Virus record (IMG/VR): IMGVR_UViG_2671180864_000008
From: a virus
Taxonomy: Duplodnaviria; Heunggongvirae; Uroviricota; Caudoviricetes
Length of the DNA: 7,789 bases
Reading direction: 5' to 3' (one strand)
This document shows, piece after piece, positions 1 to 7,369 of the stretch. Made by a program: the position numbers and the translations under genes. The notes under the pieces were generated by a model. That model made no database searches and was not told the origin of the DNA. It saw only the letters and a list, made by a program, of their open reading frames with translations. Positions within the stretch are counted from its first letter, which is position 1. Every line of letters starts with the position of its first letter.

Positions 1-126
1 ATTATCTGAACATAAAACACTATCAATAAGTTGGAGTCATTACCGATAAACTACAAGACGAGATATAAACCACCCTGCATTTAAATAAACAATAAACAAC
101 ATCAGAAAAATAATTCTGCTCTATGG

Positions 127-153
127 TTTACATTCAAAAATATCATTTATACT
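127..153 (+). promoter_or_regulatory. Candidate sigma70 promoter for ORF 194..529
   Basis: TTTACA (127-132), 15-nt spacer, TATACT (148-153), about 40 nt upstream of the ORF start. Motif match only; the spacer is shorter than the 17-nt optimum. Confidence 0.3.
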
Positions 154-193
154 TTTCAGAACATCACCAGCAAGGCATAAACAAGGAAACTAA

Positions 194-529
194 ATGAAGT
201 GGATTGTGATTGATACAGTTATCCAGCCATCATGCGGAATATCTTTTTCAGTCATATGGAGTAAAATAAAATTAATAATCTGGTATCAATCGGATGCTTT
301 CTTACCTCCTGAAAGTATATTTACACTGACTCACACAGGCATCATGCTCAATAACAAAGTGCTACCTGTAACCATTTACAACGTAGTACCATTCAATAAA
401 ACATTCTGGAATTCAATCAAAAATAGCCAGGAATGCCCTACAAATACAGATAACGTATTGAATGAATGCTTTAATAACCGTTGCACTCTGCAAATATGTC
501 CTTATGGACTAAAACAACAAAGTCCATAA
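194..529 (+). CDS. Hypothetical protein, 111 aa, AT-rich, Cys-containing C-terminus; possible moron/cargo gene
   Basis: ATG start with AAGGAA Shine-Dalgarno 6 nt upstream (184-189). A 336-nt open frame is unexpected by chance in AT-rich DNA. No family recognised. Confidence 0.3.
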
Positions 530-563
530 GGAGTTTACTCACATCTGACAAAATCAATATAAA

Positions 564-585
564 CAGCCCCTCCGGAGAGGGGCTG
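564..585 (-). terminator. GC-rich perfect hairpin, probable minus-strand (or bidirectional) intrinsic terminator
   Basis: 9-bp perfect stem CAGCCCCTC / GAGGGGCTG with CGGA loop. On the minus strand it is followed by TTTATATTGATTTTGT; on the plus strand there is no U-tract. Confidence 0.4.
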
Positions 586-695
586 GAGAGTGGCGCTATG
601 TGCCATTGCATGGTGCCGGGTGCCTCCCGGTGAATTCAGTACCAGCACCTGAATCCGCGATTATCCCATATACCTACTCGCTGATTGCCCCTCCG

Positions 696-874
696 CACAG
701 GGGGATTCACCATGCCAGTTTCTTTTAACAAACTCCCCGCAAAANNNNNNNNNNNNNNNNNNNNNNNNNNNNNNNNNNNNNNNNNNNNNNNNNNNNNNNN
801 NNNNNNNNNNNNNNNNNNNNNNNNNNCACAGGGGGATTCACCATGCCAGTTTCTTTTAACAAACTCCCCGCAAA
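696..874. repeat. Two identical 48-nt direct repeats (696-743 and 827-874) flanking an 82-nt run of N (745-826)
   Basis: CACAGGGGGATTCACCATGCCAGTTTCTTTTAACAAACTCCCCGCAAA occurs on both sides of the N run. Consistent with a scaffold gap between overlapping contig ends or a collapsed tandem repeat. Confidence 0.8.
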
Positions 875-929
875 CCAGACAACAGTCAACCGCCTGAATT
901 GTGAAGTATTTAAAAATTTCTCCCGCTAA
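843..929 (+). CDS. Very small ORF (28 aa) with strong Shine-Dalgarno, partly inside the direct repeat
   Basis: GGGGGA 6 nt upstream of ATG at 843, stop TAA at 927-929. Translated by hand (MPVSFNKLPANQTTVNRLNCEVFKNFSR). Too short to judge coding status. Confidence 0.15.
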   Translation: MPVSFNKLPANQTTVNRLNCEVFKNFSR

Positions 930-1107
930 CTGATACCCGGCTAACAGTCTGGCGTTTTCTTTTTCAGCAACGGGAAAGCAACAACCACCACACCCGCCAC
1001 CAGCACACCGTCAGCCAGCACTGACATTATCCGGCTGCTGCAATGCCATTCACAAAAACAGTAAGCAATCACTTTTTACCGTAACAGGTGATAATCCAGA
1101 TATGTAT

Positions 1108-1461
1108 CTACCCCAGATGAGTAATCCGAAGTTCATCCATACCACAGGTCCTGGCTATTCTGTTGTACTCCTGAACAAGAGCAAATAATTCTGAATTAGC
1201 AACCATGAACTCATCGCAAACCCTCTGTATAGCATCACTATTCAGAATAATAACGTCTCTTCCCGAAAGACGATCAGGAGTACAGAACAAAACTGTCAAA
1301 CGGCTGAAGGCCTTTGCTCGTGCTGCATTGACTATATCAATACGCTGCCTAAGGATGAAACACCCCGACGCCTCATCAATATTCACTCTACCCACACCAT
1401 ATGAATGATAAATATTTAATGCTGAAAAAACCATTAGACCGTATAACAAACACTCAATCAA
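1108..1461 (-). CDS. Hypothetical protein at the cargo position just downstream of the tRNA cluster; start uncertain
   Basis: Open frame from the track, 117 aa. The track start at 1461 is a TTG; the first in-frame ATG is at 1434 (108 aa) with a weak ribosome-binding site. No family recognised; varied amino-acid composition. Confidence 0.35.
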   Translation of the reverse strand: MIECLLYGLMVFSALNIYHSYGVGRVNIDEASGCFILRQRIDIVNAARAKAFSRLTVLFCTPDRLSGRDVIILNSDAIQRVCDEFMVANSELFALVQEYNRIARTCGMDELRITHLG

Positions 1462-1571
1462 TACTTAACAGAACTTTTATTTTTGACAAACATAAAATAT
1501 TTTCAACAATATCCTGAGCCAGGTATATTTCAGTATAAGGCTCTGCCGGAAGGAATCTGGAAGAATGAATA

Positions 1572-1648
1572 TGGCGCGCTGTACTGGATTCGAACCAGTG
1601 ACCGATTGCTTAGAAGGCAATTGCTCTGTCCGGCTGAGCTAACAACGC
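1572..1648 (-). tRNA. argO: tRNA-Arg, anticodon UCU
   Basis: Hand-folded 77-nt cloverleaf on the minus strand: acceptor GCGTTGT/ACAGCGC, anticodon loop CT-TCT-AA, T-arm ACTGG-TTCGAAT-CCAGT, 3' GCCA. Symbol assumed from the ileZ-argN-argO order I recall for 933W-like phages. Confidence 0.85.
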
Positions 1649-1661
1649 ATGATGCAGATAA

Positions 1662-1738
1662 TGGACCGCCATCGGGGACTTGAACCCCGCGCAGCCAGCT
1701 TCGAAGGCTGGCGCTCTTTCCTGATGAGCTAATGGCGG
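1662..1738 (-). tRNA. argN: tRNA-Arg, anticodon UCG
   Basis: Hand-folded 77-nt cloverleaf: acceptor CCGCCAT/ATGGCGG, anticodon stem CCAGC/GCTGG with loop CT-TCG-AA, T-arm CGGGG-TTCAAGT-CCCCG, 3' TCCA. Symbol assumed from gene order only. Confidence 0.8.
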
Positions 1739-1745
1739 TATGTGA

Positions 1746-1821
1746 TGGTGGCCCTTGCTGGATTTGAACCAGCGACCTGGCGATTATGAGTCGCTCGCTC
1801 TCACCACTGAGCTAAAGGGCC
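1746..1821 (-). tRNA. ileZ: tRNA-Ile2-like, anticodon CAU (lysidine type, ileX-like), or possibly tRNA-Met
   Basis: Hand-folded 76-nt cloverleaf: acceptor GGCCCTT/AAGGGCC, anticodon loop CT-CAT-AA, T-arm GCTGG-TTCAAAT-CCAGC, 3' ACCA. Strongly resembles E. coli ileX as I recall it. Confidence 0.85.
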
Positions 1822-1861
1822 GGGAGCCGCATAATAACGACGCGTAATTAATTCTTCAATA

Positions 1862-2920
1862 TCATCCGTTCTGGCTGACTAAATCCTGTACTTCCCGAAC
1901 CGTCTGCTCAAAACGTTCAGTCTCCAGCTCAACGCCAATTGCACGACGCCCGAGCGCCAGTGCCGCTTTCACTGTCGAACCCAACCCCATGAAAAAATCT
2001 GCAATCAGGTCACCCGGACGACTGCTAGCGCTGATTATCTGCTGCAGCATTTCTGCCGGTTTTTCGCACGGATGTTTCCCGGGATAGAACTGCACCGGTT
2101 TATGCGTCCACACATCGGTATACGGCACCTGCACCGTCACGCCAAAATACCGCCGCAGATGTTTATATTCACTCAGCAGCTCCGCATACTGCCGGTTCAG
2201 TGAGGTATACGTATCCACCAGCTGGTGGTGGAGCTTTTCCAGTTCACCACGCCGATGCTTCTCTTCTGCCACCCGGGCAAACAGCGCCTGTAATTTCAGA
2301 TAATCGCTTTCATTCGGCAACTGCCACTGACCGGCACTGAACCAGTGCGACACCATGTTTTTCTTTCCTGTGGCATCTGCAATCTGTTTTGCCGTTATCC
2401 CCAGGGCAGCTCGCGCATCACGAAAGTAAGAAATCAGCGGGGCCATCACATGCTGTTTCAGTGCACTGCCCTTCGCCGCATACCCGGCATCTTTCGGACG
2501 ATACGGCCCCTGATAATGTTCCGCGAACAGAATGCGCTCTGTGGCGGGGAAATACGCCCGCAGGCTTTCCTTGTTGCATCCGTTCCAGCGTCCGGACGGC
2601 TTCGCCCAGATAATATGGTTCAGCACACTGAAGCGTTCACGCATCATGATTTCGATATCAGATGCCAGGCGATGACCACAGAACAGGTAAAGACTTCCGG
2701 CAGGTTTCAGCACCCGCCAGAACTGCGCCAGACACTGGTCCAGCCACTTCAGGTAATCATCGTCGCCCTTCCACTGGTTATCCCAGCCCTCAGGCTTCAC
2801 TTTAAAGTACGGCGGGTCCGTGACTATCAGGTCAACAGAATTTTCGGGTAACGACCGGATAAATTCCAGGCAGTCGGCGTTGATTAACTCACAACTGGAT
2901 ATTTTTACAGTATTAAGCAT
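1862..2920 (-). CDS. DNA methyltransferase, N6-adenine/N4-cytosine family, beta-class motif order
   Basis: 352 aa with ATG start. DPPY (motif IV) near the N-terminus (TDPPYF) and an FxGxGST-type AdoMet motif near the C-terminus (DFFMGLGST). Position between Q and the tRNAs matches the phage Dam-like methylase of Stx2-type phages. Confidence 0.85.
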   Translation of the reverse strand: MLNTVKISSCELINADCLEFIRSLPENSVDLIVTDPPYFKVKPEGWDNQWKGDDDYLKWLDQCLAQFWRVLKPAGSLYLFCGHRLASDIEIMMRERFSVLNHIIWAKPSGRWNGCNKESLRAYFPATERILFAEHYQGPYRPKDAGYAAKGSALKQHVMAPLISYFRDARAALGITAKQIADATGKKNMVSHWFSAGQWQLPNESDYLKLQALFARVAEEKHRRGELEKLHHQLVDTYTSLNRQYAELLSEYKHLRRYFGVTVQVPYTDVWTHKPVQFYPGKHPCEKPAEMLQQIISASSRPGDLIADFFMGLGSTVKAALALGRRAIGVELETERFEQTVREVQDLVSQNG

Positions 2921-3014
2921 GGATCATTAAGCCTGTCTCTGATAGGCTCATTCTGCTTTTGCGCAAAGCAGTGGGCCTGAGGTTTGCTTGTGAACCCAAC
3001 GCATGAGCAGATGG

Positions 3015-3041
3015 CTGGTGGGTGCCCCTAACACCCACCAG
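3015..3041. promoter_or_regulatory. Perfect 10-bp inverted repeat (stem-loop or operator-like site) upstream of the methyltransferase gene
   Basis: CTGGTGGGTG - CCCCTAA - CACCCACCAG. Seen directly in the sequence; function unknown. Confidence 0.4.
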
Positions 3042-3054
3042 CCGCCCATTTACC

Positions 3055-3084
3055 ACAAATAAAAAAGCCTTCACTGCGGAAGGC
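3055..3084 (-). terminator. Intrinsic terminator after the 65-aa ORF
   Basis: Minus-strand hairpin GCCTTC-CGCAGT-GAAGGC followed by TTTTTTATTTG. It overlaps the stop codon of ORF 3071..3268. Confidence 0.6.
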
Positions 3085-3268
3085 GTCTGTAACAACCGAA
3101 CTGATAGTCTGCCAGACCCGCCATAACCAGCTGGGTCAGTATTAACTGGCAGCGTTCGCGTGAAAGGTAAGTATTCTGCGCTATCTCCCCGACTGTCGCC
3201 GGTTCGGTAACGCTTAATTCATTAAACACCACTCTGGCGGTTTCTGTCATATCCTGCTGTTTTAGCAT
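3071..3268 (-). CDS. Hypothetical small protein, 65 aa; first ORF of the Q-dependent late transcript
   Basis: ATG start with AAGGAA Shine-Dalgarno 6 nt upstream, followed by the terminator. Hydrophilic, so not a holin. No family recognised. Confidence 0.5.
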   Translation of the reverse strand: MLKQQDMTETARVVFNELSVTEPATVGEIAQNTYLSRERCQLILTQLVMAGLADYQFGCYRRLPQ

Positions 3269-3388
3269 GTCTTTTCCTTTTCCGGTTAACGTGACACACC
3301 AATAACTCTTGTCGAAAAAGCCAGCAAGCTGAAAGACAGGTATTCACCGCCACCAGCGCGTTTACTGTACTGACGCGATTTCAGTCAT

Positions 3389-3412
3389 AAAAAACCCGCT
3401 CGGCGGCGGGTT
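3389..3412 (-). terminator. tR'-like intrinsic terminator downstream of the late promoter
   Basis: Minus-strand GC-rich hairpin (AACCCGC-CGCCGA-GCGGGTT) followed by TTTTTT, about 65 nt downstream of the predicted late-promoter start site. Confidence 0.65.
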
Positions 3413-3444
3413 GTAGAAACTCTTCTAACGTCAGGCATAAAACG

Positions 3445-3487
3445 CCCATCGTTATGACGAATTTACCACAGATTCCGGAAAAATCAA
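3445..3487 (-). promoter_or_regulatory. Lambda PR'-like late promoter with sigma70-dependent pause element (candidate qut site)
   Basis: Minus strand reads TTGATT, 16-nt spacer, TGG-TAAATT (extended -10), then CGTCAT, then AACGATGGG. The TAAATT -10 and the AACGAT-GGG pause element at +1 match my recollection of lambda PR'. Lies directly after the Q stop codon. Confidence 0.7.
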
Positions 3488-3492
3488 CCTTG

Positions 3493-4314
3493 TTACCTAG
3501 TTACCTTTTTTAACTGCCGCTCAGCCCATGCTTCTTCAATATCAAACCGGGTCACCAGCGCATCATAAAATTTCTTAACTGTTTTTTCCCATGACGCGCG
3601 TGTTATCTGGTTTGTCACCTCGCATATAGCATTAAATGCCTCCGTTGATGGTAGTCTTTCATAGCCACGACCACCACAACGCTGGCAGTCTCTGATAACA
3701 GGCATACCACGTTTTACCGACTCTTCACGATGAATGGCGACACCACGCCCACGGCAATCCTTACAGGCGGTGGAAACCTCACCCTTTCCGCCACACTCCG
3801 GACAGGCAACTTTTACCACCTCCCTGACTTTTTTCCATTCTTCCCAGTAAGACGGATACACACCTTTCGTACACTTTGCCCATACCGGCGGCTTACCATC
3901 CGGATACTGGATCTTGTTTGTAAAAACCTCGCTTTCAATAAATTTTTTTCCGTGACAGCAGGGGCACTGTTTTTTGCTCGCCGCGCTACGGGCATAATCT
4001 TCAAACGCATACGAAGCCATAATACGCATCACTGCCGGTTTTATTTCTGCCGGGAGTTTTCTTAACGCCGCCACGCGATCACACCGACTGAGTGCATATT
4101 CTGTCAGCAATTCTGTTGCCCGCTCTCTGTCATTCATACTAATGCCCATTTTCCCAAGGAACGCAGAAACCCCCATCTCAGCCCGATTCTGTGTCATGCC
4201 CTGCGCGGCCATCACATCAGTGATACTCAGCGCATCTTTCGACGTTGAGGCCGATGCATCAGTCAGGCCGGGGGATTTTGGGGAGTAGTATTTCGGTAAA
4301 TCTTCCAGTTTCAT
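3493..4314 (-). CDS. Q: Late-gene antitermination protein Q, lambda-Q family, with expanded zinc-binding region
   Basis: 273 aa. N-terminus (KYYSPKSPGLTD... DVMAAQGM) and C-terminus (YDALVTRF... KKVTR) are colinear with phage lambda Q as recalled. Contains four CxxCxGxG-type motifs where lambda Q has two. Start ATG overlaps the rusA stop (ATGA). Confidence 0.85.
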   Translation of the reverse strand: MKLEDLPKYYSPKSPGLTDASASTSKDALSITDVMAAQGMTQNRAEMGVSAFLGKMGISMNDRERATELLTEYALSRCDRVAALRKLPAEIKPAVMRIMASYAFEDYARSAASKKQCPCCHGKKFIESEVFTNKIQYPDGKPPVWAKCTKGVYPSYWEEWKKVREVVKVACPECGGKGEVSTACKDCRGRGVAIHREESVKRGMPVIRDCQRCGGRGYERLPSTEAFNAICEVTNQITRASWEKTVKKFYDALVTRFDIEEAWAERQLKKVTR

Positions 4315-4691
4315 TTTTTGACCTGCTCTTCATGCATTATGGGGTAAATCTTCACCCCCAGACGTCCACCAGATACTGGCTGACCACGAACGATATTGAT
4401 TTCATCAAACTGCTCATCGTCCATTAGCAACCCCGCATGCGTCAGCGCATCCAGCGGCGCTTTCAGAATATTGTCCAGGTCACGGCGGCGCTTATCCGGT
4501 GGTTCTGCAATAATTTTTATTGCCAACCTTCCGGACAGGCTTAATTTCAGCCGCTGCTGGCGAACAATAAGCGCCACTGCCCGGCGATAACGCTCCCCGG
4601 CTTTTGATACAAAATATGTGCTGCCACGACGACGCCAGTAAGTGTTCACCGTCGGCGGGTAAGGTAAAACAAATTCTATGCGCTCGGTCAT
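4311..4691 (-). CDS. rusA: RusA-type Holliday junction resolvase
   Basis: 126 aa. Matches RusA as recalled, including the acidic motif PDKRRRDLDN and a following DD(E/A)Q. Located in the nin region upstream of Q, as in several lambdoid phages. Confidence 0.85.
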   Translation of the reverse strand: MTERIEFVLPYPPTVNTYWRRRGSTYFVSKAGERYRRAVALIVRQQRLKLSLSGRLAIKIIAEPPDKRRRDLDNILKAPLDALTHAGLLMDDEQFDEINIVRGQPVSGGRLGVKIYPIMHEEQVKK

Positions 4692-5750
4692 TTATGCTTT
4701 CCACTTCAGAACACCCGAATTTCTCGCGTGCATTAAAAAACGAATCAGCAACAACAGCTGACTGCCGTGTTTCTCTTCAAAATCTTTTACTCCGGCATGT
4801 AGTTCGTTACGGCATTTACGGCATAACGGAATAACAAACAAATCATCAGCCTTTGTTCCCATCCCTCCCAGTCCATGACCAATGATGTGATGCGGATCAT
4901 CTGCCTGATTGCCACACGTCATGCATTTCTGCGTTTTTACCCAGCGCGTGTATACAGGCATCTCTTCCCGTTGTGATTTCTGGCGCTGGAGATACTGAGC
5001 CGGTGACTCCGGATCAACGGCAATGCTGACCACCGTCTTTTCCTGTGGTGGGTTCTGTTGCTGGTGGACGTGAGGCAGTAACGCAATATTTTTTGTGCGC
5101 TGCTTCAGTATGCTGGTGGCTGTCTGCTCTCCCGGTATGATGTCGCTTTCACTGTACACAGAGCGAATTTTTTCCGCACGCAACCCCAGCGAACGACGTA
5201 ATACCGCTTCCGGTAGCGCGTCCGCCACCTGATTGCGGACCGCCCACCAGGATAATTCAGCCAGAGATAATTCACGCTCCTGCGTACCGCTTATTGCGTG
5301 ACCGATGACGTCAATCATCCATGCTGACAGGTTTTGATGAGCAAGTTGCTCGAGTGATTCGGATGTCTGGTCACGCAGCTGGTTGTCGCAGTGCCAGCAC
5401 AACACCATTGCGCCGGTACCATAACGGTGAATGACGGTTTCGCTGTGATGATAATCGCCGTGTGGCCACTGGCAGGATTTAATATGGCGCAACAGCCAGT
5501 CAGACAATGCACCAGCACCACCAGCAGCACGAATCACCCGTGCGTTACTGAAAAACGGCAGCAATGTTTTGTCTTCCACCAGCGGCTGGCGAGCGGCAGG
5601 AACGACCCCGGACGGCAGATTACGCATGCTTTTTGGTTCCGGCTCCACCAGTATTCTGCCGTTATGGAATGCTGACATTGATTCACGGCCTGGCTTAACG
5701 ATAACCAGACCGAGTTCCGGTACCAGAACAGGTCGAAGTAATACCCGCAC
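4692..5750 (-). CDS. YdfU-like DUF968 prophage protein with C-terminal HNH-like zinc-binding motif
   Basis: 352 aa, GTG start with GGAGG Shine-Dalgarno 4 nt upstream. N-terminus closely resembles E. coli Qin prophage YdfU as I recall it. C-terminal CMTCG...DPHHIIGHG...CRKCRNELH is an HNH-like arrangement. Confidence 0.7.
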   Translation of the reverse strand: MRVLLRPVLVPELGLVIVKPGRESMSAFHNGRILVEPEPKSMRNLPSGVVPAARQPLVEDKTLLPFFSNARVIRAAGGAGALSDWLLRHIKSCQWPHGDYHHSETVIHRYGTGAMVLCWHCDNQLRDQTSESLEQLAHQNLSAWMIDVIGHAISGTQERELSLAELSWWAVRNQVADALPEAVLRRSLGLRAEKIRSVYSESDIIPGEQTATSILKQRTKNIALLPHVHQQQNPPQEKTVVSIAVDPESPAQYLQRQKSQREEMPVYTRWVKTQKCMTCGNQADDPHHIIGHGLGGMGTKADDLFVIPLCRKCRNELHAGVKDFEEKHGSQLLLLIRFLMHARNSGVLKWKA

Positions 5751-5751
5751 A

Positions 5752-6030
5752 TTACCTCCAGATCCGTTGCTGGAATGTGCGGGACGGACGCGTTGGCCGT
5801 TCGGAGTAAGGGAGCCTGACGGAGATTATCCAGTGACGGTAGTCGAGGCTAAGGGCTTTTTTAACCTCGCATCCGCGCCTGCGGTAACACTGAATGAGCC
5901 ATTCGGCCTGTTCTTCAGTGCATGGGGGATGCTGGTACCAATCAGATTTAAATGCGTGAGAGCGCCGCCCGTGCCTGCTGGCAAAGACGGCTGAATTATC
6001 AGAATTGTGTAGTCTGGAATTTTGCGCCAT
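5752..6030 (-). CDS. Hypothetical nin-region protein, 92 aa
   Basis: ATG start with GGAGAAA Shine-Dalgarno. Stop is directly adjacent to the start of the downstream DUF968 gene. No family recognised. Confidence 0.5.
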   Translation of the reverse strand: MAQNSRLHNSDNSAVFASRHGRRSHAFKSDWYQHPPCTEEQAEWLIQCYRRRGCEVKKALSLDYRHWIISVRLPYSERPTRPSRTFQQRIWR

Positions 6031-6439: not shown

Positions 6440-6469
6440 ATTCTATTCCGGCACCATCTAAAACTTCAA
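6440..6469 (-). promoter_or_regulatory. Candidate sigma70 promoter for the 6357..4311 gene block
   Basis: Minus strand TTGAAG, 18-nt spacer, TAGAAT, located between the hok terminator and the 86-aa ORF. Motif match only. Confidence 0.3.
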
Positions 6470-6476
6470 ACGCGTT

Positions 6477-6507
6477 GAAAATAAAAACAAAAACCCGCCG
6501 AAGCGGG
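6477..6507 (-). terminator. Intrinsic terminator of the hok transcript
   Basis: Minus strand CCCGC-TTCG-GCGGG followed by TTTTTGTTTTTATTTT. Confidence 0.75.
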
Positions 6508-6577
6508 TTAAGTGTGGGTGCATTGAGGATGCCTGACCCATCAGAGGTGGCGAGGGATTTCTCCCCCGCCTGGTCTC

Positions 6578-6733
6578 TTACTCCTCAGGTTCGTAAGCTG
6601 TGAAGACAGCGACCTCCGTCTGGCCGGTTCGAATTCGTACCTCGCAGAGGTCTTTCCTCGTTACCAGTGCCGTCACTATGACGGTTAAACAGATGACGAT
6701 CAGGGCGATTAACATCGCCTTTTGCTGCTTCAT
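6578..6733 (-). CDS. hokD: Hok/Gef-family type I toxin, 51 aa
   Basis: Translation from the internal ATG at 6733 (MKQQKAMLIALIVICLTVIVTALVTRKDLCEVRIRTGQTEVAVFTAYEPEE) matches HokD/RelF as I recall it. AAGGAG Shine-Dalgarno upstream. The track ORF extends in frame to an ATG at 6790 (70 aa). Confidence 0.85.
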   Translation of the reverse strand: MKQQKAMLIALIVICLTVIVTALVTRKDLCEVRIRTGQTEVAVFTAYEPEE

Positions 6734-6885
6734 AGCCTGCTTCTCCTTGCCTTTCGGCACGTAAGAGGCTAACCTAGATTTGCCGTTCATAGATTGAGCC
6801 TCAGATTAATGTTAAGCGTCTTGCCGGACGCGTAATGTTAACTGGGGCTTTTCTCTATCTGCCTTTTGGTGTTCATGCCTGAGAC

Positions 6886-6915
6886 AGATAGCCTCAAGCA
6901 CCCGCTGCAATTCTA
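6886..6915 (-). promoter_or_regulatory. Candidate hok promoter -10 (TAGAAT) and 5' tac-like element of the hok mRNA
   Basis: Minus strand TAGAAT at 6915..6910. The mRNA 5' segment GGGTGCTTGAGG (about 6898..6887) is complementary to the 3' segment CCTCAATGCACCC (about 6531..6519), consistent with the fbi/tac fold-back typical of hok mRNAs. Confidence 0.4.
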
Positions 6916-7024: not shown

Positions 7025-7369
7025 TCATCGTAAAATATCCTCCACGCTTATCAGTCCGTTCCGCTCCAGATAACTCATCGCCTTATCCGGTAATTTGCAG
7101 TCTGGCTTCGCTTTCCTCAGTTGCCAGGTTAACTGCTTTACCAGCATGGTTAACTCATCGACCAGACGCTGATATCCCACTGGTTTGTATTCATGCAATT
7201 TACCGGCTGGCTCTGCTGCCAGCGATACCAGTGCGATTTCCAGAACAGCAATATCCATCTTATATGTGCGGATGATGTCATGGTCGATTGTGCCCGGTAT
7301 GCACAGTCTCTGTGCTTCAATAGTCTCCTCTGCGTGAGCTATTAACTGCTCTCTGGTAAAAGTCGTCAT
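7025..7369 (-). CDS. Hypothetical protein, 114 aa; paralog of the upstream 55-aa ORF
   Basis: ATG start overlapping the upstream stop (ATGA), Shine-Dalgarno GGGG. Shares the N-terminal MTTxT(K/R)E(R/Q) and the internal IAL(A/V)SL(E/A)AEP motif with ORF 7366..7533. Confidence 0.5.

Follow-up and report, generated by a model that had tools for sequence, protein, structure and literature searches.

A probable Q-to-lysis segment of a non-Stx lambdoid prophage, with iraL and an ORF92-DUF3927 cassette at the stxAB-equivalent site

The stretch of DNA analysed here, hereafter the window, comprises 7,789 nucleotides (nt) of a virus of the Caudoviricetes (IMG/VR record IMGVR_UViG_2671180864_000008). 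Positions 1..4314 most probably represent the "moron" segment between the antiterminator gene Q and the lysis genes of a lambdoid prophage without Shiga toxin (Stx) genes, built on a backbone in common with Stx2a and Stx2c phages; we give this reading a probability of roughly 85%. Where the Stx phages carry stx2A-stx2B, the window has a 92 amino acid (aa) open reading frame (ORF), ORF92, together with a small DUF3927 gene. Beyond these lie the small RNA (sRNA) gene STnc100 and, on the opposite strand, iraL, which encodes an anti-adaptor of RssB. All recognisable genes of the window except iraL are on the minus strand and phage transcription runs from 7789 to 1; features below are on the minus strand unless stated otherwise.

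The late region and its cassette site

Over 1822..4314, which holds Q, orf65 and a methylase gene, the window is 93.8% identical to the Stx2a phage Stx2_EH1910 (LC567834; 100% of the length), and the orf65-methylase segment shows about 94% DNA identity to many Stx2a phage records. Q (3493..4314) is a 273-aa antiterminator of the quuQ type (Pfam PF03589, Antiterm, E 1.6e-53), and quuQ is the name annotated in Stx2_EH1910. It is followed by orf65 (3071..3268; phrog_331), which has a 198-nt equivalent gene in Stx2_EH1910, and by an orphan N6/N4 DNA methyltransferase (1862..2920; Pfam PF01555, E 7.9e-42; PADLOC MTase_II, 540 bits). Three tRNA genes, identified with ARAGORN and Rfam, come next: an ileZ-type tRNA with anticodon CAT (1746..1821), argN with anticodon TCG (1662..1738) and argO with anticodon TCT (1572..1648). 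Their names were taken from RefSeq and phage records, and both names and order are as in Stx2 phages. A sequence-only reading of the window had proposed an Stx-phage-like order of Q, the late promoter PR', methylase and ileZ-argN-argO, and each of these elements, PR' in the form of a promoter-like site, lies where that reading had placed it. A relationship of orf65 to lambda orf-64 was considered and rejected, since the two are unrelated on comparison though equivalent in position.

Between Q and orf65 lies a promoter-like site resembling lambda PR', with a -35 element TTGATT (3487..3482) and a -10 element TAAATT (3465..3460) spaced by 16 nt. Downstream of the -10 element, AACGATGGG at 3453..3445 matches GGTAAATTtgactcAACGATGGG of lambda PR', and there is a 23-nt local match to the lambda PR' region; the lambda segment matched comprises the PR' -10 together with the sigma-dependent pause element. 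A terminator scan placed a strong hairpin terminator, tR', at 3412..3387, where the leader fold has a z of -3.2, and a further terminator at 3084..3061 that overlaps the orf65 stop. We infer that 3387..3487 is the PR'/tR' region of a putative late operon.

In the proposed mechanism, PR' would drive late transcription from right to left, and on induction Q-modified polymerase would pass both tR' and the orf65 terminator. Readthrough would then cover the methylase, the three rare-codon tRNAs and ORF92 with DUF3927, as it covers stx2AB in Stx phages, so that the two small genes are putatively Q-dependent. A generic promoter scan of the window returned 7 sites against 5.6 in shuffled sequence; such sites are no commoner than in shuffled sequence, and therefore no promoter of its own can be claimed for ORF92. 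The late transcript would next extend over STnc100 and continue into iraL in antisense, and this would, if anything, lower iraL expression.

The site of the toxin genes was defined by a three-way alignment of the window, the Stx2a phage Stx2a_WGPS8 and phi296, a Traversvirus whose corresponding locus has no stx genes. In each of them argO forms one flank; on the other, a 30-nt motif (904..875) is followed by STnc100. This conserved motif, TCACAATTCAGGCGGTTGACTGTTGTCTGG (875..904), lies directly 5' of STnc100, and leftward of it the three sequences show no relationship. Only about 100 nt separate argO from the motif and STnc100 in phi296, where the site is empty. In Stx2a_WGPS8 the site is occupied by stx2A-stx2B, and in the window by ORF92 and the DUF3927 gene; the alignment revealed no stx2AB similarity in the argO-STnc100 interval of the window. 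This agrees with the sequence-only reading, which had taken the slot downstream of the tRNAs as the position of stxAB. As judged from the alignment, the stx position is a genuine cassette site, here with a different occupant, and the 875..904 motif is its right-hand boundary. It is of some practical value that three or more states of the exact stxAB insertion site can now be told apart: an empty cassette site, one filled by stx2AB and one filled by ORF92 plus DUF3927. A role of the motif as a candidate promoter is possible. No convincing sigma-70 promoter for STnc100 could be derived within 875..904.

The slot had been described as AT-rich, and its GC content is indeed 40.4% (45..1571) compared with 50.3% elsewhere in the window. 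It had also been said to consist of nothing but hairpins, a gap and unrecognised ORFs, with two ORFs (1108..1461, minus; 194..529, plus) put forward as the cargo. Both ORFs exist at those positions, whereas the description of the slot did not survive: it contains iraL, STnc100, the DUF3927 gene, the end of an IS1 element and an artefactual gap. Homology searches placed 194..529 in the IraM family and matched 1108..1461 to phrog_2873. In the shortened form 1108..1386, and together with the overlooked DUF3927 gene, the latter does stand in the place of the toxin genes, whereas 194..529 is iraL and lies past STnc100, outside the stx-equivalent interval.

The rare codons ATA, AGA, AGG and CGA amount to 9.8 per 100 codons in ORF92 compared with 1.4-3.3 in the backbone genes, and 6 of the 13 Ile codons of iraL are ATA, which is read by the phage ileZ tRNA. 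The counts are small; the bias is consistent with the adjacent ileZ-argN-argO serving AT-rich cargo.

ORF92 and the DUF3927 gene

ORF92 (1108..1386) belongs to phrog_2873 (E 3.8e-70). The maximal ORF extends to a TTG at 1461, and the probable start is a GTG at codon 26 (1386..1384), at which gene callers begin the diverged copies (MNIDE...). Its DNA is present in 1314 of 5426 complete Escherichia coli genomes (24%), and nearly all sampled matches are without an annotated feature. A search of 5.8 billion proteins revealed a second E. coli lineage, 54-60% identical, in which the gene directly follows a 241-aa AraC-type (HTH_18) regulator and precedes STnc100. Profile searching against 1.84 billion representatives gave only 20 clusters, a locus search with a narrow alignment only 3 loci in species-representative genomes, and a tblastn search against 50,697 phage records a single phage, mEp460_ev081. 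The significance of ORF92 is that of a selected gene which 24% of complete E. coli genomes carry and standard annotation omits.

In many contigs of the diverged lineage an IS3-family element just upstream of the conserved core replaces the N-terminal extension. A 62% identical relative is found on the 2.7-kb contig JAEWMQ010000075.1, binned in a metagenome-assembled genome labelled "Bacillota bacterium"; this contig is most likely mis-binned enterobacterial prophage DNA.

AlphaFold2, run with seven sequences, predicted a hairpin of two long helices (residues 3-35 and 50-81) with a predicted local distance difference test score (pLDDT) of 84.5, and the short loop between them bears the most conserved motif, TPDR-SG. 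Pfam and NCBIfam gave no match to ORF92, and a profile search against PDB sequences gave nothing significant, the best being UPF0335/GapR (E 0.054).

The DUF3927 gene (941..1072) encodes a 43-aa TciB-like protein with one hydrophobic helix (Pfam PF13064, 95.6 bits against a gathering threshold of 25; phrog_1470, TciB-like, E 7.8e-13), named "DUF3927 family protein" in RefSeq. In a Citrobacter braakii prophage, a 43% identical relative of ORF92 lies downstream of tRNAs and directly upstream of TerB/TciA-like and DUF3927/TciB-like genes, two holins and an M15 endolysin. As a low-confidence guess by analogy, ORF92 and DUF3927 might form a late, membrane-directed Tci-like module with an effect on the envelope or on lysis and not on an animal host. 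A literature search on TciA/TciB returned Trypanosoma cruzi papers only, and one on DUF3927 a single passing mention. That the two genes constitute a Q-dependent late cassette, a positional alternative to stx2AB, which encodes a new activity is a tentative and rather doubtful proposal. If it were true, that activity might consist in controlling envelope integrity or the timing of lysis, in excluding other phages or colicins, or in an effect that lysis releases; roughly one in four E. coli genomes would then carry, outside RefSeq annotation, a cassette encoding a helical-hairpin protein without a characterised relative.

A related proposal is that, in place of a late function in lysis or at the envelope, the pair serves phage exclusion or resembles a toxin-antitoxin system, with a small membrane toxin and a cytoplasmic partner. 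The single hydrophobic helix of the DUF3927 peptide resembles type I toxins, the PHROG label of the TciB-like family reads "inhibition of cell division or resistance to colicin", and both the moron position and the foreign composition of the cassette would fit. We nevertheless consider this unlikely, as PADLOC gave no match for ORF92, DUF3927 or IraL (the methylase alone matched the MTase_II models), the diverged ORF92 lineage is without DUF3927, and a TerB-like gene stands between the two in Citrobacter.

It is improbable that the ORF at 1108..1461 does not encode a protein and owes its conservation to the recent spread of one prophage segment, or to an RNA or regulatory element. Most of the conservation is indeed uninformative, 1172 of the 1314 genome copies being at least 99% identical, the ORF is called neither by the RefSeq pipeline (PGAP) nor by RAST (in phage mEp460_ev081), and it has no strong Shine-Dalgarno sequence and no Pfam or NCBIfam match. 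The comparison with the 57% identical lineage argues against it. Differences fall at codon positions 1, 2 and 3 in the proportion 33/32/54; in frame, the proportion of synonymous differences (pS) is 0.59 compared with 0.25 for nonsynonymous ones (pN), whereas in the shifted frames pS and pN are about equal and 8-15 stops appear. With the Nei-Gojobori method the ratio of nonsynonymous to synonymous substitution (dN/dS) was 0.26 (dS 1.18) over codons 27-117 and 0.80 over codons 1-26. Furthermore, the profile search found relatives of 91-106 aa in other contexts and genera, 21-43% identical, which begin at the equivalent position, and a pLDDT of 84.5 was reached from only seven sequences. This pattern marks 1108..1386 as the probable gene, encoding a genuine 92-aa protein evidently under purifying selection.

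iraL, STnc100 and the left end of the window

The plus-strand gene at 194..529 encodes a 111-aa RssB anti-adaptor of the IraM family. It matches NCBIfam NF007393 (IraM) over its full length with 162 bits (cutoff 121), and shares 110 of 111 residues with IraL of E. coli CFT073, the sole change being S74 here vs L74 there; identity to K-12 IraM is 61%. IraL was named by Hryckowian et al. in 2014 from CFT073, with at least 95% identity to CFT073 iraL as the operational criterion separating iraL from iraM (PMC4045071), and the gene of the window lies within that range. Pulldown, two-hybrid and RpoS stability assays with the CFT073 protein demonstrated that it binds RssB and makes RpoS more stable while cells grow logarithmically (PMC4045071).

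The start of iraL mRNA, mapped with uninduced cells in log phase by 5'RACE (rapid amplification of 5' cDNA ends), was assigned to a sigma-70 promoter (PMC4045071). The published 5'RACE sequence falls at window position 161 onward, with the hexamers TTTACA (127..132) and TATACT (148..153) on the plus strand. In the 171-nt stretch 45..215, which begins at the IS1 junction and reaches into iraL, only two differences from CFT073 occur, at 160 and 191, and the hexamers are unchanged. DNA of the iraL type is present in 1446 of the 5426 complete E. coli genomes. By homology, 194..529 is iraL, and neither novel nor Q-controlled nor a substitute for stx. With its own sigma-70 promoter, and antisense to late transcription, it is therefore not Q-controlled cargo; it is a lysogenic-conversion gene and part of the scaffold common to these phages. 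In the lysogen, IraL would be made from that promoter and would bind the adaptor RssB, so that RpoS would not be delivered to ClpXP and the general stress response would be raised during growth.

STnc100 (555..744, minus) was identified with Rfam RF02076 over the full model (positions 1-206; 133.6 bits against a gathering threshold of 47). It ends at an intrinsic terminator found in the terminator scan (stem 585..564) and is convergent with iraL. Its fold has a predicted energy of -74.6 kcal/mol (z -2.2), and the hairpins reported in the sequence-only reading are there because this RNA is structured. Published work puts STnc100 75 nt downstream of stx2B and describes, in O157:H7, a partly overlapping Hfq-binding sRNA, EcOnc27/sRNA103 (PMC12370729, PMC12711010); STnc100 has been found by reverse transcription PCR in vesicles (PMC12370729). 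A 2026 preprint regards STnc100 as a prophage-borne relative of PasD. RefSeq has a partial "hypothetical protein" pseudogene at 600..728 of the window (plus; 7041..7166 in locus L001 and 48270..48395 in locus L004), antisense over STnc100, which is probably a spurious protein call. Some related late regions contain two STnc100 copies, hundreds to thousands of bases apart (3467..3660 and 3936..4124 in locus L006; 2344..2556 and 5650..5839 in locus L007). The paired copies suggest repeated cassette exchange bounded by this RNA gene.

The gap in this region consists of 82 N (745..826) and is followed by a 48-nt repeat (827..874), an exact copy of 696..743. Complete genomes have one copy of the 48 nt and no intervening sequence; the gap is a scaffolding artefact of overlapping contig ends (k-1 bases) without missing sequence. 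The window itself opens inside a copy of IS1, of which the terminal 44 nt (1..44) are identical (44/44) to the end of K-12 IS1A. Homology to complete genomes starts at 45. The insertion, 116 nt upstream of where iraL transcription starts, displaces an upstream region that is conserved in CFT073.

The view, raised in the sequence-only reading, that the contents of the slot are decayed and functionless remnants is one that we regard as very improbable. IS1 has inserted in the prophage, RefSeq annotates a partial pseudogene here and leaves ORF92 uncalled, and a few disrupted ORF92 variants exist. The genes themselves are nevertheless intact. iraL is 99% identical to an experimentally active allele, DUF3927 is full length, and ORF92 combines a dN/dS of 0.26 at saturated dS (1.2) with no frameshift at 57% identity and with same-length relatives down to 21-43% identity; the "pseudogene" is antisense over STnc100 and probably mis-called. 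The remnant view is already largely refuted.

The least probable alternative, that iraL is a Q-controlled replacement of stx which is induced with the prophage like Shiga toxin, can point to a location between Q and the lysis genes, a segment of 34.5% GC and the ATA-rich Ile codons, and is opposed by the strand of iraL opposite to PR' transcription, by a conserved sigma-70 promoter whose start was mapped in uninduced cells, by a position that is not within the stx-equivalent interval but past STnc100 and its terminator, and by Stx2a/Stx2c phages some of which have stx2AB plus an IraM-family gene at this position.

Several observations weigh against our reading of 1..4314. The PR' site has only 8 of 12 consensus matches and falls below the threshold of the generic promoter scan. 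The window stops in IS1 (position 44) before any lysis genes; in complete relatives of the locus, DUF1737, holin, lysozyme and Rz come next. The IS1 insertion shows that the prophage is eroding, and it could alter the regulation of iraL. PGAP makes no ORF92 call in CFT073 or in strain AREA_499, the ribosome-binding site is weak, and fold and sequence searches with ORF92 returned generic coiled-coil hairpins or non-significant matches only. Finally, the pairing of ORF92 with DUF3927 is seen in two of three lineages, the diverged E. coli lineage being without a recognisable DUF3927.

The minus-strand order in the rest of the window is hok/sok, two small ORFs, DUF968 and RusA, followed by Q, orf65, the methylase and the three tRNAs. 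The DUF968 protein is encoded at 4692..5750 and RusA at 4311..4691. A complete hok/sok-type type I toxin-antitoxin locus occupies 6578..6903, upstream of DUF968-RusA-Q, with hok at 6578..6790 (Pfam HOK_GEF, E 3e-23) and sok RNA at 6728..6903 (Rfam sok, 112 bits); CFT073 (hokD) and mEp460 have a locus at the same place. Just past hok is a weak, sub-threshold Rfam match to IsrK (6488..6569; 25.7 bits against a gathering threshold of 50, E 0.022). Stx2a_WGPS8 has a strong pair of IsrK and C4 antisense RNA upstream of its ant genes.

Comparison with known systems

The Stx2a phage Stx2_EH1910 has the order ydfU-rusA-quuQ-198-nt ORF-methylase-three tRNAs-stx2A-stx2B-iraM (minus)-nanS-type esterase, which, stx2AB aside, corresponds to that of the window in every gene. 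Stx2c/Stx2a phages of the 2851/1717/WGPS type have this scaffold in common with the window, including STnc100 and the opposite-strand IraM-family gene. Their difference from the window lies at the cassette site, where they carry stx2A-stx2B in place of ORF92 and DUF3927, and in the IraM-family protein, which is 74% identical to IraL. Among the features by which Stx phages are recognised, the window has Q with a putative PR'/tR' and the methylase-tRNA cluster, and has no stxA-stxB between argO and STnc100. Despite the common backbone, the absence of stx genes therefore takes it outside the definition of an Stx phage, and on gene content it would be classed as Stx-phage-like.

In Stx2a_WGPS8 an intact 107-aa IraM-family ORF (6454..6777, minus) takes the position of iraL and is oriented alike, right after stx2B-STnc100; the identity of its product is 74% with IraL and 65% with IraM. 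Another Stx2c/Stx2a-converting phage record has an IraM-family gene at 8877..9200 (minus). With tblastn such genes were found in 46 phage records, 41 of them at 60-80% identity, and the majority of these 41 are Stx2c- or Stx2a-converting phages. Most of the genes are unannotated and a few carry an iraM label from an automatic pipeline; a brief literature search found no paper describing an IraM-family gene beside stx2. The adjoining position of IraM-family genes and stx2 in some Stx2c/Stx2a records suggests that control of RpoS stability recurs on this backbone.

K-12 IraM, located at the e14 prophage junction and induced by Mg2+ starvation, is of the same family as IraL, in another genomic context and with another promoter. 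Both act on RssB, with IraL being active in log phase and making different RssB contacts (PMC4045071). The STnc100 region of O157:H7 follows stx2B, whereas that of the window follows DUF3927; the stxB pairing proposed for this sRNA (PMC12370729) cannot apply here. The window shares the TciB-like PHROG with the Tci modules (TciA/TerB-TciB) of P1-like and lambdoid phages, unlike which it is without a TerB/TciA gene. In the P1 genome paper the "Tci" label is reportedly an annotation by homology.

The same gene order is found in the potB prophage of CFT073, arranged as hokD-orf-DUF968-RusA-Q-...-ileZ-argN-argO-(ORF92)-DUF3927-STnc100-iraL. It differs in having, between Q and the tRNAs, an IS200 where the window has orf65 and the methylase, in lacking the IS1 found in the window 116 nt upstream of the iraL start, and in IraL residue 74. 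In 424 complete E. coli genomes a single place holds at least 80% of the window, with the same gene order; the slot by itself is found in 863, O104:H4 outbreak strains among them. As a discovery the window carries little weight: the locus, iraL and the sRNA have already been published or entered in catalogues, and hundreds of sequenced E. coli share the arrangement. It is a locus already known, of the CFT073 potB-prophage type, with a chief payload, iraL, that has been characterised; the exception is the ORF92-DUF3927 cassette.

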